Positions 36,511 to 49,691 of a stretch of 64,000 bases of DNA are shown here, piece after piece. Made by a program: the position numbers and the translations under genes. Below the pieces are notes generated by a model that saw nothing but the letters and a program-made list of their open reading frames with translations, made no database searches and was not told the origin of the DNA. Source of the DNA: an uncultured Armatimonadia bacterium (GTDB lineage: Bacteria; Armatimonadota; Zipacnadia; CAVVLO01); assembly GCA_963749155.1 (NCBI GenBank), contig CAVVLO010000002.1, positions 704,001-768,000 of the forward strand. Reading direction: 5' to 3'. The first letter of the stretch is position 1, and each line of letters opens with the position of its first letter.

Positions 36511-38511
36511 ATGCGGCCTGGTGGCATAAAGGCTGACGCCGAGTTCGGTGACGCTGCCCAACAAGGCGAGCGTGGTCAGCTTCTAACACTTAGTAAACGC
36601 GCTTTCCTGCTTGGTCTTCTGCTCATTCCGCCTATGGTTTACTGGGTGGAGTTGATGGAGATCAAGTGGAATGTCTCCGATGGTACCTGCGTCTCCATCT
36701 TCTTCGCGGTAATCTTTGCCTTGTTCGTGCTGGCGCTGCTTAACAGGCTGGTCGCGCGCTATCTGCCGCGATTTGCCTTCAGCCAGGGCGAGCTTGTGCT
36801 GATTTACGTAATGCTCTCATGTGCCGTTGCAGTCGCTGGCCACGATATGATGGGCAACGCCCTGCCCAACTTGCAAAACCTCTTCTGGTTCGACACGCCC
36901 GAAAACCGCTGGGACGAGATGCAGCAATATGTACCCCAGTGGTTCTCGATCCGCGACAAGGACGTGCTGAAGGGCTTCTACCTCGGGGAATCCAGTATCT
37001 GGGCGCCTGACCATCTGGTGCCCTGGCTCAAAATGATGGCAGTTTGGGGCGGTTTCCTCGCTGTCGTCATCTTCGTGATGATCTGCATCAACGTCATATT
37101 GCGCCGCCAGTGGACCGAGGTTGAACGCCTGACCTACCCCTTGATGCAACTGCCCCTCGAGATGACCAGTCAGCGCAAGGACAACCTCTGGACCAACAAG
37201 GTTATGTGGCTCGGGTTCGCCATACCCTTCCTGATAGAAAATATGAACGCTTTCCATTATCTGTATCCGGCTGTCCCGAGTGTCCAGATAAAACTGTATG
37301 ACCTGGGGCAGTTCTTCACTTCGCGTCCCTGGAATGGTATGGGCTGGACGCCGATATCCTTCTATCCTTTTGCGATAGGGTTTATTTTCTTCTTGCCAAC
37401 CGATCTGGCTTTCAGTTGCTGGTTCTTCTACCTGCTACGCAAAATCACCGAAGTAGCCACCACGGCGATTGGCTGGCACGATCCAGGCGCAGCCTCTGGC
37501 CTGGCGCGATTCCCCTACACCTATGAGCAGGGCAGTGGCGCCTGGATTGGACTTTTCGTGTTTGCGCTCTGGGCTAGCCGCGGGCACCTGGCTGAAGTGT
37601 GGAACAAGATCCTCGGCAGGCCAACCTATCTGGACGACTCTAATGAGTCTATGAGTTATCGGATGGCTTTTGCCGGTATGGTGCTTGGTTTTGCGGCCAT
37701 CATCGCTTTCTGTATGGCGGCGGGAATGAGCTTCGGAATCGCCGTTATGTTTTTCGCTATCTACTATATGCTCTGTATCGCCATCACCCGCGTACGCGCC
37801 GAGCTTGGGCCGCCCGCCCATGAGACCAACTGGGTTCGCCCCGAGATGATGGTTATCTGGACCTTCGGCACCAAAGCCATTGGCCCAGCAAACCTGACGA
37901 TAATGAGCTACTTCTACTGGTTCAACCGGGGCTACCGCAACCTCGTGATGCCGCATCAGCTGGAAGGCTTCAAACTGGCAGAGCTTACCGGCACCCAGCC
38001 CAAGCAGATGATGAAAGCCATAATGATCGCCTGCGCGCTGGGCATAGTGGCGTCCTTCTGGGCCCTGCTGGATATGTATTATCGCGAGGGAGCAGCGACG
38101 GCCCGAGTGGCAGGTGGCTACCGGACTGGCATCGGCAACTATGCTTTCGACCGACTCAAGGGCTGGCTGACCAATGAAGCGCCAATTGATGTGCCCGCGC
38201 TGATGGGAGAAGGCTTCGGCCTCTTCTTCGTGCTGGGACTCGTGTTCTTCAAGAACCGGTTCCTGGGCTGGCCGCTCCATCCAGCCGGTTACGCCCTTGC
38301 GATGAGTTATGCGCTGGAATATTTCTGGTTCTGTTTCTTCCTGTCCTGGCTCATCAAGACGCTGCTTGTCAAATACGGCGGAGTGCGCCTGTATCGCAAG
38401 GCCATACCCTTCTTCCTGGGAGTAATAATCGGCGATTATGTGATGGCAAGCGCCTGGGCGCTTGTAAGCCCAATCGCAGGCATACGAACGTATCAGTTCT
38501 TTATTTTCTAA
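36511..38511 (+). CDS. Polytopic membrane protein, DUF6785/DUF6784 (OPT-like putative transporter)
   Basis: Many TM helices; RRQW...ERL.YP, TRVRAELG, WPLHP.GY, KYGG.RLYR...PFFLG. Confidence 0.75.
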   Translation: MRPGGIKADAEFGDAAQQGERGQLLTLSKRAFLLGLLLIPPMVYWVELMEIKWNVSDGTCVSIFFAVIFALFVLALLNRLVARYLPRFAFSQGELVLIYVMLSCAVAVAGHDMMGNALPNLQNLFWFDTPENRWDEMQQYVPQWFSIRDKDVLKGFYLGESSIWAPDHLVPWLKMMAVWGGFLAVVIFVMICINVILRRQWTEVERLTYPLMQLPLEMTSQRKDNLWTNKVMWLGFAIPFLIENMNAFHYLYPAVPSVQIKLYDLGQFFTSRPWNGMGWTPISFYPFAIGFIFFLPTDLAFSCWFFYLLRKITEVATTAIGWHDPGAASGLARFPYTYEQGSGAWIGLFVFALWASRGHLAEVWNKILGRPTYLDDSNESMSYRMAFAGMVLGFAAIIAFCMAAGMSFGIAVMFFAIYYMLCIAITRVRAELGPPAHETNWVRPEMMVIWTFGTKAIGPANLTIMSYFYWFNRGYRNLVMPHQLEGFKLAELTGTQPKQMMKAIMIACALGIVASFWALLDMYYREGAATARVAGGYRTGIGNYAFDRLKGWLTNEAPIDVPALMGEGFGLFFVLGLVFFKNRFLGWPLHPAGYALAMSYALEYFWFCFFLSWLIKTLLVKYGGVRLYRKAIPFFLGVIIGDYVMASAWALVSPIAGIRTYQFFIF

Positions 38512-42215: not shown

Positions 42216-42659
42216 ATGAAATTCTCAACCAAGGGGCGCTTCGCTGTACGCGCGCTTGTCGATATCGGCATTCACGCCGCAGAACATCCAGTAACGGTAA
42301 AGGAGATTTCCGAGCGTCAGGGCATCTCTACCTTCTATTTGGAGCAGCTCTTTTCCAGGATGCGCAAAGCTGGAATCATCAGGGGGCTACGCGGTCCAAA
42401 TGGCGGCTACGAACTGGCCAGAGAGCCCGCCACCATAACCGTACTGGAAGCAGTTGAGGCTGCCGAAGGGCCTGTGGCTCTGGCTGATTGTAACGATGAC
42501 GATGACATACACCAGGCCTGCCCAAGACGACAAAATTGTGTTACCTCTGTGCTCTGGGTCGAGCTGGCCGAGCAGCTGCGCGAACTCCTTGCCCAAGTAA
42601 CGCTAGCTGAATTGCTCGAACGTCATAACAGGCTGGAGGCTTCCTCGAGGGGAAGCTGA
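42216..42659 (+). CDS. iscR: Rrf2 family regulator, IscR-like (three Cys)
   Basis: STKGRFAVRAL, YLEQLF..MRKAG, RGPNGGY.LA; C-x9-C-x5-C; precedes a cysteine desulfurase. Confidence 0.8.
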   Translation: MKFSTKGRFAVRALVDIGIHAAEHPVTVKEISERQGISTFYLEQLFSRMRKAGIIRGLRGPNGGYELAREPATITVLEAVEAAEGPVALADCNDDDDIHQACPRRQNCVTSVLWVELAEQLRELLAQVTLAELLERHNRLEASSRGS

Positions 42660-42670
42660 AGTCTACCCCT

Positions 42671-43843
42671 ATGGAACGCGTCTATCTTGACAATGCTGCA
42701 ACCACCAGGTGTGATCCCCGGGTTACCGAGGTTATGGTGTCCTGCCTGACCGAATCCTTTGGCAATCCCAATTCACAGCACTCCTTTGGCCATAAAGCAG
42801 CCCACTTGCTGGAAGAGGCTCGAGCCACAACTGCCGACTGTCTGGGAGCAACTCCTGAAGAACTGACTTTTACAGCAGGGGGCAGCGCGGCAATCTACCT
42901 GGCGCTCACCTGTCTGGCCAAGGCCGGCAGAGCCCAGTCGAACCGCATACTTGTTTCTTCCGTCGAACACGAAGCTACTCTCAAAACCTGTCGCCTGCTC
43001 GTAGCTGAAGACTTTGAAGTGGTGCAGTTACCGGTTGATGAGGAAGGCTTCGTCGAACTCGAAGCCGCAGAAAGCGAACTGGCACGAGGCGCGGCCTTCC
43101 TCAGCGTACTCCACGTGCAAAATGAAGTCGGCACAATCGAGCCAATTGAGGCCCTTGGCGCCCTGGCCCGTAAAGCGGGGGTGCCCTTCCATCTGGATGC
43201 CATCCAGAGCTGTGGACAACTGCCCCTCAATTTGGCCGAGTTGCCGGTTGATATGCTTTCGCTGTCAGCGCACAAATTTTACGGTCCGAAGGGAATCGGA
43301 GCGCTTTATGTAAGGCGCGGACTGGACCTGGCAGGTACTGCACTGGCGCCAGGAGGTGACCTTGCGCCTCACGCGGGCACTCCTGATGTAGCAGGAGCGG
43401 TAGGGCTTGCGACGGCCCTGCAACTGGCCACCAGCGAGCTGTCAGAGCGCGCAGCCCGCATCAGCGAGCTAAGAGCCTTGTTGATTGAAGAAGTACTCGC
43501 TTCTAGTCCAGATGCTATACTGTCAGGCCCTTGTGAACAGCGGGCAGGTGGGATCACCCATTTTACTTTTCCACGGCTGGAAGGCGAAGCGCTGGTCACC
43601 AGGCTGGACCTCAAAGGCTTTGCCGTCTCAACCGCCTCAGCCTGCAGGGCTTCCTCCGCCCAGCCAAGTCACGTGCTCAAAGCTATGGGGGTGCCGGCAA
43701 GCCGACTTTATGGGGCCTTGCGCGTTTCACTGGGCAAGGACAATACAGCGGAGGAAGTAAAAGCTTTTGTACAGGCCCTCTACGAGGCAGTAAACAGCCT
43801 GCGTCTTTCTAGCCCCCTAATCTGCTCCTGCCCTCTGGTATAA
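42671..43843 (+). CDS. iscS: Cysteine desulfurase (IscS/NifS)
   Basis: YLDNAATT, FGNPNS.H, SAHKFYGPKGIGALY, STASAC...SHVL.AM. Confidence 0.92.
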   Translation: MERVYLDNAATTRCDPRVTEVMVSCLTESFGNPNSQHSFGHKAAHLLEEARATTADCLGATPEELTFTAGGSAAIYLALTCLAKAGRAQSNRILVSSVEHEATLKTCRLLVAEDFEVVQLPVDEEGFVELEAAESELARGAAFLSVLHVQNEVGTIEPIEALGALARKAGVPFHLDAIQSCGQLPLNLAELPVDMLSLSAHKFYGPKGIGALYVRRGLDLAGTALAPGGDLAPHAGTPDVAGAVGLATALQLATSELSERAARISELRALLIEEVLASSPDAILSGPCEQRAGGITHFTFPRLEGEALVTRLDLKGFAVSTASACRASSAQPSHVLKAMGVPASRLYGALRVSLGKDNTAEEVKAFVQALYEAVNSLRLSSPLICSCPLV

Positions 43844-43876
43844 TGAACCATTAGCCAATCCGCAGAGGGACTAGCC

Positions 43877-44794
43877 TTGAGAGACCAGTCACAGCTTTCG
43901 GAGCGTATCCAGCACCTGAAGCAAGAACGCAAGGCGCTGGTGCTTTGCCATTATTATGAGCGCGAAGAGATTTACGATGTCGCCGACCATATCGGGGATT
44001 CCCTTGGCCTGAGCCGACTTGCGGCGGACAGCGATGCCAGTGTGATTGTTTTCTGCGGTGTCCACTTTATGGCTGAAACCGCCTCCATCCTCGCCCCTGA
44101 AAAGCTTGTGCTGCTACCTGTGGTCACGGCAGGCTGTCCGATGGCCGATATGGTCGATACCGAGTATGTACTCGAGCGGCGCAAGGCTCTGCCTGAGGGG
44201 GAAGTCGTCGCCTATGTCAACACTTCCGCCAGGGTAAAGGCTGTCTCAGACTGGTGTTGCACCTCAGCCAATGCGGTTTCGGTCGTGAATCACGTGCCTT
44301 CGGACACGGTGATTTTCGTACCTGACAAGTACCTCGGGGCTTATGTAGCCAGCAAGACCAACAAAAAGGTAGACCTGCCCCCTGGTTATTGCCCGACCCA
44401 TGCGATGATCTTGCCGGAACACATATTGCAGGCAAAGGCCGATTATCCAAAGGCTCTGGTGCTGGCTCATCCCGAATGCCGGCCGGAAACTTTGGCGCTG
44501 GTTGATTATGTTGGCAGCACAGCGGGTATGGAGAAATATGTGGCAGGCTCCGAGGCTACCGAGTTCATCATCGGAACAGAGACCGGCTTCATCGCCAAGC
44601 TGCATCGCGACAATCCTGGAAAGCAGTTCATTGCGGCGCGCGAAGCCGCAACCTGCCCCAATATGAAGAAGATAACTCTCGAAGCTGTGCTCCACTCGCT
44701 GGAGGGCCTGGAGCCTGTGGTCAAGGTGCCCGAGGATATCGCAAGCAAAGCCAGGCTTCCAATAGAGCGTATGCTCAGCATACCGAGAGATTGA
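43877..44794 (+). CDS. nadA: Quinolinate synthase
   Basis: FCGVHFMAETA, GCPMAD, YVNTSA, CPTH, HPEC, CPNMKK; own TATAAT at 43839. Confidence 0.96.
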   Translation: MRDQSQLSERIQHLKQERKALVLCHYYEREEIYDVADHIGDSLGLSRLAADSDASVIVFCGVHFMAETASILAPEKLVLLPVVTAGCPMADMVDTEYVLERRKALPEGEVVAYVNTSARVKAVSDWCCTSANAVSVVNHVPSDTVIFVPDKYLGAYVASKTNKKVDLPPGYCPTHAMILPEHILQAKADYPKALVLAHPECRPETLALVDYVGSTAGMEKYVAGSEATEFIIGTETGFIAKLHRDNPGKQFIAAREAATCPNMKKITLEAVLHSLEGLEPVVKVPEDIASKARLPIERMLSIPRD

Positions 44795-44877: not shown

Positions 44878-45915
44878 ATGGCCAAAGAGTTCACACGCAA
44901 GCAACTGCTGACCTTGCTGGGAGGCCTTGCAATAACTGGCCTGCCTGGTTGCGGCAGCAAGGAGGCGGCCTCCGAGCCGCTCCAGACCCCCCCTGTGCCA
45001 CCCGCCCCACCTGCCCCAGAAAGCTCTGAAGCCGGCAAGAAGAGCCTCGTTGTGGTTGCCCTTGGCAAGAATCTGACGAATGCCAACGGTGACTATATCG
45101 CAGCCCAGGTGCAGCCTGTGGTGGACAAAGCCATCGCCAGAGCATTGAAGGCCAAGGATGCGGTAGAAGGTCTTGCCAAAATCATCAGCCCCGAGGATGT
45201 AGTCGGACTCAAAGTCAACTGCATCGCCGGTTACTCGCTTTGTTCGCGTCCAGAGGTCGCTTTTGCCATCGCCAGGCGCGTCCAGGACCTTGGTGTACCG
45301 CCGGAACATATCATCATCTGGGACCGCACCGACGCCGAGCTTATTGGCTGCCGTTACACGCTCAACAAGCAACCAGGCGCCATCCAGGTCTATGGCACCT
45401 CACCCGACATTGGTTATACAGCCTCACCTCTCAAGGGGGGCACCTTCAGCGATAACATCTCGAATATCCTGGTGGAGCGCTGCACCAAGCTCATCAATGT
45501 GCCGGTGATGAAGACCCACGGGGGAGCTGGCGTGTCTTTGGCGCTCAAGAATCACCTGGGCACCAACCAGAATCCTGGCAACAACCACAATGACTTGAAG
45601 TCTATAGGCGATCTCAACGCCTTCGCTCCCATCAAGGACAAGACCGTGCTGGTTGTTTGCGATGCGATCCGGCCTCTCTACAAAGACGGGCCTGGCGACA
45701 ATCCCCAGTACCGCTGGGAATATAATGCCATCATCGCCAGCACTGACCCTGTTGCGCATGACAGGGCGGGCTACGAGATCCTCTCCCAGCGCTGGCAGGT
45801 CGCGCACGGCGCCGAAGGTTGGGGCCACGAATATGGCCTCGACCACATCAGGCGCGCCGGTGAACTGGGACTTGGCAATTTCGATCCGAGTATGCTTGAG
45901 ATAGTGGAGGCCTAA
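44878..45915 (+). CDS. DUF362 family protein 1, Tat-like lipoprotein
   Basis: TRKQLL...LPGC lipobox; VGLKVN, INVPVMKTH, SLALKN, STDPVAHD. Confidence 0.85.
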   Translation: MAKEFTRKQLLTLLGGLAITGLPGCGSKEAASEPLQTPPVPPAPPAPESSEAGKKSLVVVALGKNLTNANGDYIAAQVQPVVDKAIARALKAKDAVEGLAKIISPEDVVGLKVNCIAGYSLCSRPEVAFAIARRVQDLGVPPEHIIIWDRTDAELIGCRYTLNKQPGAIQVYGTSPDIGYTASPLKGGTFSDNISNILVERCTKLINVPVMKTHGGAGVSLALKNHLGTNQNPGNNHNDLKSIGDLNAFAPIKDKTVLVVCDAIRPLYKDGPGDNPQYRWEYNAIIASTDPVAHDRAGYEILSQRWQVAHGAEGWGHEYGLDHIRRAGELGLGNFDPSMLEIVEA

Positions 45916-46163
45916 GGTTCAGTCAGGCTGGAACAAGCAGCGTCTACTAATTGTCTATATAATGAAACCAAGTGCTTGCCTGGTGGCCACTTCAGCAGGT
46001 AAGTCTAGATTTGGTGCATAATATAGGTATTACAGGACCGACAGGCCTGCACTGGTTGTTCGGCAGGCCTGTGAGTGTATGACGAAAACAGCTAGATAAT
46101 TAGGGACTTACCAATCCAGCTGACGCCAGTCGTCGAGCGAGATTGATACCAGGAGGCCAATAT

Positions 46164-47171
46164 ATGGCAAAAGACCGAGAACACACCAAAGGCATAACCA
46201 GGAAAGATTTCGTCAAGGGCGCGCTCGCAGGAGCCTTCCTGCTTGGCGCGGCCGGTTCACTTCCAGGCTTCGCCGCTTTTGATCCAAAGAAGAAGAGCCT
46301 CGTGGCAATTGCTCGCGGCACCAATCTGATGAACGCCAATGGCGATTATCTCGGCCCACAGGTCCAGACTGTGGTGGACCGGGCCATCGCTAAAGCCCTG
46401 CAGGCGCCTAATGCGGTCGAAGGGTTGAAAAAAATCATCAGCGCGAACGATACTGTGGGGCTGAAGGTAAACTGCATCGCCGGCTATTCGCTATGCACCC
46501 GGCCTGAAGTAGCCCTGGCCATTGCGCAGCGAGTCCATGACCTGGGAGTGCCCTCCGAGCGCATTATCATCTGGGACCGCACTGACGCCGAGCTTATCAA
46601 CTGCCGCTACCGGCTTCAGAAAGCTCCTGGCGGAGTCCAGATTTTCGGCACCAAGCCAGGAGTTGGCTACACTGACGCTCCTGTCCCAGGTGGCGCCAAG
46701 GCAGATCATCTCTCGAAGATACTCACCGAGCAATGCACCAAGCTCATCAATGTGCCTGTAATGAAGACTCACGGCGGAGCCGGGATTTCTCTCGCGCTAA
46801 AAAACCATCTGGGCACCGACCAGAATCCTGGCAGCTACCATGATGATGGTTGTATTGCGGTTGGAGACCTCAACGCCTCGCAGCCCATCAAAGACAAGAC
46901 CGTGCTGGTCGTTTGCGATGCAATCAGGCCCCTGTGCAAACATGGCCCTGGCGATAGTCCCGAGTTCCGCTGGAATTACAACGGCATCCTGGCCAGCACC
47001 GATCCCGTAGCGCATGATCGTGTGGGCTACGAAGTAATGGCCCAGCAGTGGCGGACTCTGCGCGGGGCTGAGGGCTGGGGTCATGAGCAAGGTCTGAAGC
47101 ATATACTGAGGGCTGCTGAACTCGGCCTCGGTCACGGCGACCTAAATATGATCCAGATCGTCGAGGTATAA
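46164..47171 (+). CDS. DUF362 family protein 2, Tat-like signal
   Basis: TRKDFVK signal; close paralog of protein 1. Confidence 0.85.
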   Translation: MAKDREHTKGITRKDFVKGALAGAFLLGAAGSLPGFAAFDPKKKSLVAIARGTNLMNANGDYLGPQVQTVVDRAIAKALQAPNAVEGLKKIISANDTVGLKVNCIAGYSLCTRPEVALAIAQRVHDLGVPSERIIIWDRTDAELINCRYRLQKAPGGVQIFGTKPGVGYTDAPVPGGAKADHLSKILTEQCTKLINVPVMKTHGGAGISLALKNHLGTDQNPGSYHDDGCIAVGDLNASQPIKDKTVLVVCDAIRPLCKHGPGDSPEFRWNYNGILASTDPVAHDRVGYEVMAQQWRTLRGAEGWGHEQGLKHILRAAELGLGHGDLNMIQIVEV

Positions 47172-47187
47172 GGAGCGACTAGTAAAA

Positions 47188-48166
47188 ATGGCAAAACAGT
47201 TTACGCGCAAGCAACTCCTCGGATTACTCGGAGGGCTGGCGATAACCGGGATTACTGGCTGCGGCAAAGAAGGAGCCACTACTGGGGCTCTGCCCCCCGC
47301 CGCGCCTGTGCCTGCTCCAAAGCCTGCCACCAGCACTCCCAAAGTGGGCGGCGAACTAGGCAAGGGTGTCCTTTATATAGCCAAAGGCGCAGATGCCAAG
47401 GACAACGTCAAACGTGCCCTTGTGGGGGCGGGCGGACTTGAGAAATGGGTTAAGCCTGGCTCAAAAGTCGTCATCAAGCCCAATATGGCCTGGGGAGCTC
47501 CCCGGTGACGTTGGAGTGGTTACTTCTCCCGACGTCGTTGTTGCGCTAGTCGAAGCCTGTAAAACAGCAGGCGCGGGAAGCATCCGGGTCATCGATCACG
47601 GTATAAATCCGGCCGCGTCGGTCTACGCCGCAAGTGGTTTGAAGACGGCTATCGAAGGCGCCGGCGCCGAGTGTTTTATTGATACTTCGGGCGGCACCGA
47701 GCGGCTTTACACCAAAGTGGCTCTGCCCCAGGGCAAAGCAATGCAGGAAGACGAGTGCCTCACCGAGTTGCTCGAAGCCGACTGCTTTATCAATGTGCCA
47801 GTCTGCAAACATCACAGCGGCACCAATGTATCGCTTGCTCTTAAGGCGATGATGGGAGCCAACCGGGACAGGCAGAAGTGGCATGCCAGCCAGTTGCATC
47901 AGTGTATCGCCGACTACGCGACAGAAGTCAGGGCTCATCTTGTCGTGCTGGACGCGACCAATGTGCTTAAGGACAACGGGCCTCAAGGGCCAGGCACAGT
48001 GGATAAAGCCAATCAGATCATAGTTGGCACCGACCCAGTCGCGGTGGACGCCTATGGCGCGACTTTGGTCGGTTATCAACCTGACCAGGTGGACCATATA
48101 AAGTTCGCATACGAGTTTGGGTTGGGCGAGATGTCCCTGGCCAACATCAAACTTAACGAAGTCTGA
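47188..48166 (+). CDS. DUF362 family protein 3, Tat-like lipoprotein (frameshift near 47500)
   Basis: TRKQLL...ITGC; VVIKPN, INVPVCKHH, TDPVAVD; break at a C run. Confidence 0.85.
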
Positions 48167-48184
48167 TAATCCGGGAGGCTCCAG

Positions 48185-49691
48185 TTGAGAAGCTGGCTGC
48201 GCCGAGGGGTGCAGGTAGCGAGCTTTGGGTTGTTTGTTGTATTGCTCGCCTATACCTTCCCCCTTGAAAATACCCTTGCAGATGACTTATGGCTGCGCTT
48301 CGATCCGCTGGTCGCCCTTTCGGCGATGATTGCGGCGAGGCAGATAATTCCTGTGCTACTAATCCCGCTTGCTTTTATGGCGCTGGTTGGCCTGCTGATT
48401 GGCCGGTGCTTTTGTGGATGGATTTGCCCGCTTGGAGCCTTGCTGGACTTTTGGAGCTGGCTGGTAAAACCGCGCCAACTTGGCAGACCTTCACCTCACC
48501 TGACCAAAGTAAAGTATGTCCTCCTAATCGTCGTGCTGCTGTTTGCCCTATTTGGTTTCCAGCTTGTGCAGTGGGTAGACCCGTTGGTCATCCTGACGCG
48601 TAGTTCCTCTTTGGTTGCCTATCCTCTCTATATGAAAGCGGCCCATCAATGGCCCTGGCTAGCCAGCCTGTTTGGTTCGGAAGCGCCCCTGGGCACAGCG
48701 CCGTTTTTCAGACTGGGCCTGGTGGCGGCGGCCTTCCTGGTCGTTATCCTGGGCCTGTCACTGCTTCAGCCGCGTTTCTGGTGCCGGTACCTGTGCCCAC
48801 TTGGCGCCTTCTACGGAGCGCTCTCACGCTTTCCGTTATTGAAGCGGCGGGTCTCCGAGGCTTGTATTGACTGCGGCAAATGCGCCCACTGGTGCAAGAC
48901 AGGCGCCATCAGACCAGATGAGTTGCGCGGGCGAGATGCTTCAGAGTGCATCCTTTGTCTAGAGTGTGAACGCGTCTGTCCGCCAAAAGCGACCCGGTTC
49001 GTAGTTGGAGGCACAGAGCAGAACACTCAAAGTGGATACGGAGTTACGCGCAAGTATCTGTTAGCCTCCCTGGTCGCCGCGGCTGCCGGTGCCGGTGCTT
49101 TCCTGGGCCAACAAATCGGACAAGCCTCTTGACCATAAACTCATCAGACCTCCTGGCGCGGCCCCGGAAGAGGACTTCAATGCACTTTGTGTGCGTTGCG
49201 GCGAATGTATGAAAAAATGTCCAACCGCTGGTCTGCAGCCTTCTATCACAGAGGCTGGCCTTGAAGGGCTAGGCACTCCTGTACTGGTTCCTCTGCATGG
49301 TCCCTGCGAAAAAGATTGCAACACCTGCGGGCAGGTCTGCCCAACTGACGCCATCCGGGGCTTCCGCATCGAGGACAAGCCCAAGCTGAAGATTGGCGTG
49401 GCAGCAGTAGACCGGGGCCTCTGCATCGGCTGGGCGCGCGGGCGGCTTTGCCTGCTTTGCGAGGAGCAATGTCCTTATGGGGCTATCCACCATGTGGACG
49501 CCTCTGGTACGCAATGCCCTGTTGTCGATGATACACTCTGTGTAGGGTGTGGGATTTGTGAGTTCCAGTGTCCACTTCGCCCCCAGGCGGCTATCCGCGT
49601 GAACGGGGTTGGGGAGCGGACTAGCGCGCCCAGTAAGCCGAGCGATGCCCTCGCCGACTTCTGGAGGCGGTCAAACCCGGATGATAATTGA
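48185..49691 (+). CDS. Membrane polyferredoxin (NapH-like TM domain fused to NapG/MauM-like domain; frameshift near 49105)
   Basis: GRCFCGWICPLG, FWCRYLCPLG, several CxxCxxCxxxCP, IRPPGA..E..F...CVRCGECMKKCPT. Confidence 0.85.

Follow-up and report, generated by a model that had tools for sequence, protein, structure and literature searches.

The stretch of DNA analyzed here (the window) comprises 64,000 nucleotides of contig CAVVLO010000002.1 (positions 704,001 to 768,000, forward strand; assembly GCA_963749155.1) from an uncultured Armatimonadia bacterium, and contains an operon for three DUF362 proteins and a membrane polyferredoxin. All four carry a motif that resembles signals for twin-arginine translocation (Tat) but reading T-R-K where the arginine pair is expected. 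The features of the operon are as follows.

44878..45915, + strand: DUF362 protein 1, 345 amino acids (aa), predicted lipoprotein with a T-R-K Tat-like signal (PF04015)
44893..44901, + strand: T-R-K motif of DUF362 gene 1, in F-T-R-K-Q-L-L (codons aca cgc aag)
46164..47171, + strand: DUF362 protein 2, 335 aa, with an I-T-R-K-D-F-V-K signal and a predicted LarA-like fold
46197..46205, + strand: T-R-K motif of DUF362 gene 2 (codons acc agg aaa)
47188..48166, + strand: DUF362 protein 3, predicted lipoprotein bearing a T-R-K signal; this assembly has a single frameshift near 47500
47203..47211, + strand: T-R-K motif of DUF362 gene 3, in F-T-R-K-Q-L-L
48185..49691, + strand: membrane polyferredoxin, a NapH-like N-terminal half with four strongly hydrophobic segments fused to a NapG-like C-terminal half
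49046..49054, + strand: internal T-R-K motif of the polyferredoxin, in V-T-R-K-Y-L-L, before a weakly hydrophobic fifth segment

Re-reading of the sequence recovered the four T-R-K motifs of the original prediction, at the genes claimed and with differing codons, and Pfam matches agreed with its three DUF362 proteins (PF04015) and multi-Fer4 membrane protein. The lipoboxes it had assigned to two of the DUF362 proteins were also found, with a lipobox-like Cys at residue 25 in gene 1 (L-P-G-C, slightly atypical) and in gene 3 (I-T-G-C). In this assembly gene 3 is frameshifted between 47499-47504 and the polyferredoxin gene between 49054 and 49104. Because full-length versions occur among the members of the same 90% clusters from other assemblies, with gene 3 unbroken at 324-325 aa and the polyferredoxin at 486-501 aa, both frameshifts are most likely assembly errors. 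The R-K pair was kept in the other assemblies, in 4/4 members of the gene 1 cluster, 6/6 of the gene 2 cluster, the six other gene 3 members with an N-terminus among the seven listed, and both full-length polyferredoxins. Identical residues in cluster members from independent assemblies show that T-R-K does not stem from an error in this assembly alone; the differing codons had earlier been taken to exclude a single sequencing error. Further genes of this genome (G000), encoding Gfo/Idh/MocA, sulfatases and SecA, are broken by single frameshifts, for example at C1:720411-720571, C3:540300 and C2:1072735, which fits indel errors.

Tat-like signals in the genome and its relatives

Pattern scans of all reading frames of the genome returned additional T-R-K signals; nothing that they matched was convincing as an R-R signal. 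A scoring matrix for N-termini, trained on 93 R-R signals and blind to both arginine positions, placed T-R-K or T-R-G signals at six of its top nine matches, and a profile search with 12 of the T-R-x signals added one more. Absent from that 12-row alignment are the internal signal, the T-R-Q signal and the one at C3:540380, which came to light afterwards; one out-of-frame row was removed from another alignment (A3). The arginine-blind scan and the profile search together gave a genome total of 14 N-terminal and one internal Tat-like signals. All 15 read T-R-x, with K at the second position in ten, G in two and A, E and Q in one each, and the two consecutive arginines that define the twin-arginine motif were found in none (0/15). 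The threonine cap and the first arginine (Arg1) were present in every signal, while Thr occupied this position in only 14 of 38 R-R signals from the class. The signals were otherwise laid out as in Tat, with a polar cap, a hydrophobic pair at +2/+3 and a moderately hydrophobic, Gly/Ala-rich hydrophobic region (h-region) near the N-terminus. Their predicted cargo, which like the DUF362 proteins belongs to families typical of Tat, comprised three sulfatases, an FGE-sulfatase protein, a Gfo/Idh/MocA oxidoreductase, a Fe/Mn superoxide dismutase (SOD) and a pectate-lyase-like protein; three further T-R-x cargo proteins had no Pfam family.

The R-K motif proposed originally therefore held in part, with K at position 2 in the ten signals mentioned, but the position is not strictly lysine and is better described as T-R-x with K preferred. 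Likewise, the R-K set described for the operon is present there but is not specific to it; since the feature spans the whole genome, the DUF362 operon is just one of its users. Position-2 variation among strains was looked for in nine clusters and none was seen. Genome homologues of 40 R-R cargo proteins from relatives had a T-R-x signal or no signal, and none an R-R signal, among the matches listed (up to four per query). The Tat signal family TIGR01409 scored over its cut-off in 38/41 genomes, this genome not being among them. A tandem duplicate was noted at G000:C5:51300-56000 (L233:6307-10980), in which an exported protein lacking a Pfam family (T-R-K and T-R-A copies, 65% identical) is followed by a signal-less sulfatase; the two are possibly a carrier-and-passenger pair.

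Orthologues of the cargo proteins carried ordinary signals. DUF362 homologues outside the lineage (n=117) had the R-R pattern in 93 cases and the R-K pattern in none, and the readable polyferredoxins of the class (n=23, leaving out L203, whose region was not read, and the duplicate L223) had R-R in 21 and K-R in two, keeping the second arginine (Arg2) in 23/23. R-K is thus not routine in orthologues, as the original prediction required. Homologues of the T-R-E protein (n=43) had R-R in 38, the other five being N-terminally truncated, and 13 of 14 Tat-like SOD signals had R-R, the remaining one reading E-R-G (genome G032). The T-R-x register was that of R-R in the orthologues of the DUF362 proteins, the polyferredoxin, the SOD, the T-R-E protein and the Gfo/Idh/MocA oxidoreductase (60% identity), and the T-R-K motifs are therefore not due to chance. 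For the two C5 paralogues the comparison yielded no register, since most of their homologues in the class had no signal at all. A profile trained on T-R-x signals leans toward K and G, yet of the 88 matches read from relatives (out of about 120 listed) 76 had R-R; among the other 12, about three were plausible signals (T-R-K in G006, T-R-G in G002 and G035) and the rest were not signal-like. G006 has two tandem tatC genes (L034, G006:C19:133202-134736), both with E103 and one with E15A, and its T-R-K lies on a metallophosphoesterase-like protein (L446).

TatC and its signal-binding site

G000:C1:603816-604577, outside the window: tatC, the only one of the genome, without stops (PF00902, 184.9 bits)

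The tatA and tatC genes needed for such signals to function occur once each, with both products over their NCBIfam cut-offs (TatC, TIGR00945, 153.2 over 132.7; TatA, TIGR01411, 65.2 over 53.9). TatA was the sole PF02416 match in the genome, the same search found no separate TatB, and no second TatC was found in the genome. Two equal-length open reading frames with identical N-termini, one just downstream of tatC (G000:C1:605393-607090) and one at C2:887309-889006, represent a duplication or an assembly repeat.

TatC residues were numbered by alignment to a solved TatC whose numbering matches that of the E. coli papers. The alignment at the signal-binding residues proposed earlier as a check revealed an altered E103 region, with P97R, Y100P and E103L in addition to E15D. 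The equivalents of H12, L13, R17, P48, F94 and L99 were kept, so that the twin-arginine site H12/E15/F94/E103 is only partly preserved (H12 and F94 kept; E15D, E103L). Conservation reached 85% or more of the rows at 28 columns; this TatC keeps 25 of them, and the three at which it deviates (E15, P97 and E103) all lie in the signal-binding site. E103 was present in 348/355 other TatCs, the exceptions being two fragments and five full-length proteins (Q, Q, Q, S, T), and in 31/31 TatCs read from class relatives (30 genomes out of 40). The remodelled loop was identical in 7/7 other cluster members covering it. A frameshift masking a normal P-x-L-x-x-x-E loop was rejected, given that the main frame is gapless through F94-L99 and that seven other assemblies have the same loop. 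Three TatCs of relatives (L026, L028 and L036, from G036, G037 and G003) have V or A at E15 and keep E103.

According to the cryo-EM structure of E. coli TatBC with MdoD (PMC13323110), Arg1 contacts E15 through water and is stacked under F94, and Arg2 forms a salt bridge to E103, packing on Y100 and facing the lipid head groups. Because the structure pairs Arg2 with E103, the residue lost from the receptor is the partner of the residue lost from the signals.

A sister TatC (P0002/P0042, 61% identity) has E103I and Y100P and keeps E15 and P97; the two formed a clade at 100/100 support, the deeper position of which was uncertain. Cargo at sister level comprised P0053, with T-R-K-E-F-L (65% identity to DUF362 gene 2), and P0388, with K-R-G-T-F-L-K. 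Since divergence from the sister is similar for TatC (61%) and for the cargo proteins (65% and 62%), P0002/P0042, P0053 and P0388 may come from one organism. A second such lineage in the phylum was looked for and not found: a TatC search of 301 genomes gave a next best score of 240.8 versus 354.5 bits, and the low-scoring TatC family f19 occurs in genomes with many ordinary TIGR01409 hits (5/5 genomes). Scans of genomes and metagenome contigs found only TatCs of at most 44% identity. The changes in signals and TatC are confined to this lineage and its sister among the genomes read.

The operon proteins and their neighbors

The predicted model of DUF362 protein 2 (pLDDT 91.3) has a LarA fold. 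Its top five structural matches were LarA-type (Z 14.1-16.4, the next being 5.2; Foldseek E 3e-6), with a root-mean-square deviation of 3.0-3.7 over 203-212 aligned residues. The likeness of the model to the LarA superfamily comes with only 11-15% identity and covers only the N-terminal part of LarA. A search of the DUF362 profile against PDB sequences gave no match at E <0.19. The LarA (lactate racemase) superfamily and DUF362 share Pfam clan CL0471, as stated in PMC11770544. The invariant residues of DUF362 were K101, K201, H203, K213, H226, D252 and D285, and a larC gene lies at C1:551745-553064.

The full-length polyferredoxin P0331 had, by hydropathy and Cys motifs, four Sec-type helices, the motif directly before a fifth, weakly hydrophobic helix that is followed by basic residues, and then a NapG-like iron-sulfur (Fe-S) domain; matches to NapH and NapG profiles were below their cut-offs. 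PFD, the NapH-NapG fusion described in PMC5449189, has the same halves and a motif before a weak fifth helix, the difference being T-R-K here in place of R-R. That work reports that integration of the fifth helix of a PFD homologue is Tat-dependent and that both Sec and Tat are needed. The suggestion that the polyferredoxin is a dual Sec/Tat substrate therefore agrees with its layout, which is that of such substrates, the motif being T-R-K.

Among 25 polyferredoxin loci of 23 relatives (1.5 kb flanks read), DUF362 was directly upstream in only five, and in the four readable cases it had an R-R signal. Our best guess, of low confidence, is that the polyferredoxin would mediate electron exchange between an extracytoplasmic LarA-fold enzyme and the quinone pool. 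At 42216-44794 of the window, a tight run that precedes the DUF362 genes encodes an Rrf2 regulator, a cysteine desulfurase and NadA. Inputs to the nickel-pincer cofactor include NAD precursors and sulfur. The idea that an adjacent iscR-iscS supplies the operon was not upheld, since in 5/5 relatives with the DUF362-polyferredoxin pair the best iscS matches and nadA lay on other contigs; iscR-iscS-nadA was accordingly rejected as part of the system. A DUF6785/DUF6784 membrane protein is encoded further upstream, at 36511-38511.

A probable co-evolved single-arginine code and its alternatives

We consider it probable that this organism has a working TatAC system and that its receptor and signals settled by co-evolution on a T-R-x-x-hydrophobic-hydrophobic code, where only Arg1 is read and Lys is preferred next to it. 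Arg1 would be read by H12/F94 and D15, and the remodelled loop (P97R, Y100P, E103L) would make Arg2 dispensable and favor lysine in its place, with the invariant Thr cap and h-regions of slightly higher hydrophobicity offsetting the loss of affinity. Among the users of this system would be the window operon, its three putative LarA-fold DUF362 enzymes being exported folded, and the polyferredoxin would insert its first four helices via Sec and its last helix and Fe-S domain via Tat. That Lys occurs ten times and Arg never at position 2 suggests a preference and not mere drift. It is also possible, if rather doubtful, that the TatC loop of this lineage prefers Lys and disfavors Arg at position 2, which would make an orthogonal pair cross-reacting poorly with the canonical system; if true, no earlier case of the Tat signal being re-coded across a whole organism would precede it, and engineers would have a second export channel ready for use.

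Several points weigh against this co-evolved code. In E. coli, TatC E103A serves as a control without transport activity (PMC13323110). Loss of E103 by itself thus disables a normal system, and compensation is needed, which here is proposed from sequence features. Single-arginine signals do not strictly need an altered TatC, since R-to-K merely slows bacterial export according to PMC6708511, and they also stand beside a normal TatC in relatives (about 3/88 hits and the E-R-G SOD signal of G032), although such isolated signals amount to a few percent there versus 15/15 here. The 15 signals are non-independent owing to paralogues, which weakens the argument for a preference, and one of them, T-R-Q on contig C6, is a weak candidate, being very hydrophobic and similar to a Sec lipoprotein. 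Y100 is poorly conserved in any case (Y in 103 and H in 106 of 355 TatCs). The sister TatC and cargo lie on separate contigs, and the co-change in species and sister represents one evolutionary event, hence provides no independent replicate. E103 is also missing from the five other full-length TatCs, namely P0018 (Q), P0200 (S), P0202 (Q), P0262 (T) and P0300 (Q); these unrelated proteins, of which P0018 carries the name of a Solirubrobacteraceae bacterium, are candidate independent replicates.

The best surviving alternative, which we regard as unlikely, is a Tat system that works but has loosened, with hydrophobicity doing the targeting, position 2 drifting and the changes in the TatC loop being tolerated damage. 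In E. coli, as reported in PMC5539426, raised h-region hydrophobicity suppresses mutations of the twin arginines as well as E103K/F94D in TatC, and the h-regions here were indeed more hydrophobic (mean 2.02, n=14, versus 1.65 for 38 class signals; 1.95, n=12, versus 1.73, n=93, in a second comparison), both control sets being biased by their selection as strong R-R matches. G, Q and K are moreover each one base change from Arg codons. Pure drift, however, does not predict ten lysines and none of the ancestral arginine, nor does loosening sit well with a fixed Thr and Arg1 or with a TatC intact elsewhere (25/28 columns).

Less probable still is that Tat is decaying or bypassed, with the cargo leaving via Sec or retained inside and the T-R-x motifs persisting as relics. 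The inactivation of E. coli TatC by E103 loss (PMC13323110) points this way, as do a 2026 review taking the haloarchaeal TatCt sites that lack F94 and E103 as inactive (PMC13673990), the small number of Tat-like signals, the many signal-less homologues of relatives' R-R cargo and the presence of SecA in the genome. Nevertheless, tatA and tatC are unbroken, the conserved TatC columns that are kept include F94 and H12, TatC is no more diverged from its sister than the cargo is, and the T-R-x-x-hydrophobic form is held across strains. The Fe-S domain of the polyferredoxin homologue tested in PMC5449189 requires Tat, and signal hits are just as few (4-7 at E<=1) in several relatives whose TatC is normal.

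A technical or decoding origin (sequencing error, altered code, RNA editing, or a canonical second TatC missing from the assembly) is already largely refuted and has only a very slight chance of being correct, for although the assembly comes in 7 contigs, with 5.87% contamination and errors that shift the frame, the same residues occur in independent Logan, JGI, ENA and NCBI assemblies, Arg2 is replaced by five different residues, a hidden canonical TatC would require R-R cargo and none was found, and a Lys-to-Arg code change is ruled out by AAA and AAG both encoding the invariant DUF362 lysines (K101, K201 and K213).

Set beside known systems, the one found here resembles canonical Tat (E. 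coli TatABC) in that TatC and TatA pass their family cut-offs and the cargo families and n-, h- and c-region layout are typical, and differs from it in the E103L, P97R, E15D and Y100P changes of a sole TatC, the lack of any R-R signal found, the fixed T and the K/G/A/E/Q at position 2. The arginine pair is described as nearly invariant in one review (PMC7317946), and a 2026 review has Z-R-R-x-hydrophobic-hydrophobic recognized by all Tat systems analyzed so far (PMC13673990). TtrB is given in PMC6708511 as the sole known native K-R cargo, with R-K blocking thylakoid transport, and mitochondrial Rieske proteins carry K-R or R-K motifs uncorrelated with the presence of Tat (PMC6251230). These share with the present signals the replacement of one arginine of the pair, but they are single substrates, TtrB losing Arg1, whereas here Arg2 is gone from the whole set, and the receptor residue that matches it is gone as well. 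Haloarchaeal TatCt is, like this protein, a natural TatC without E103; according to PMC13673990 it has also lost F94, is thought to be paired with a normal TatC and occurs in hosts that keep R-R, unlike the present genome, where F94 is kept and a second TatC was not found. Laboratory suppressors allow export without the arginine pair or E103 when changes in hydrophobicity or TatB compensate (PMC5539426, PMC7317946), but these are engineered and partial (up to ~30% activity, PMC7317946) and not a natural genome-wide state. No lineage-wide single-arginine case came to light in PMC3827258, PMC6251230, PMC9360617 and PMC13186574, and a literature search, with most subscription journals outside its coverage, turned up no report of a Tat motif with a single arginine throughout a genome.

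This organism thus has a variant of Tat whose only receptor found and entire set of recognized signals are jointly without the second-arginine contact. The variant offers a natural test of the structural model that assigns Arg2 to E103, and it bears on why the arginines stay conserved if the mechanism can do without them. It also means that motif-based predictors can miss the whole Tat secretome of an organism, TIGR01409 giving nothing over its cut-off here.

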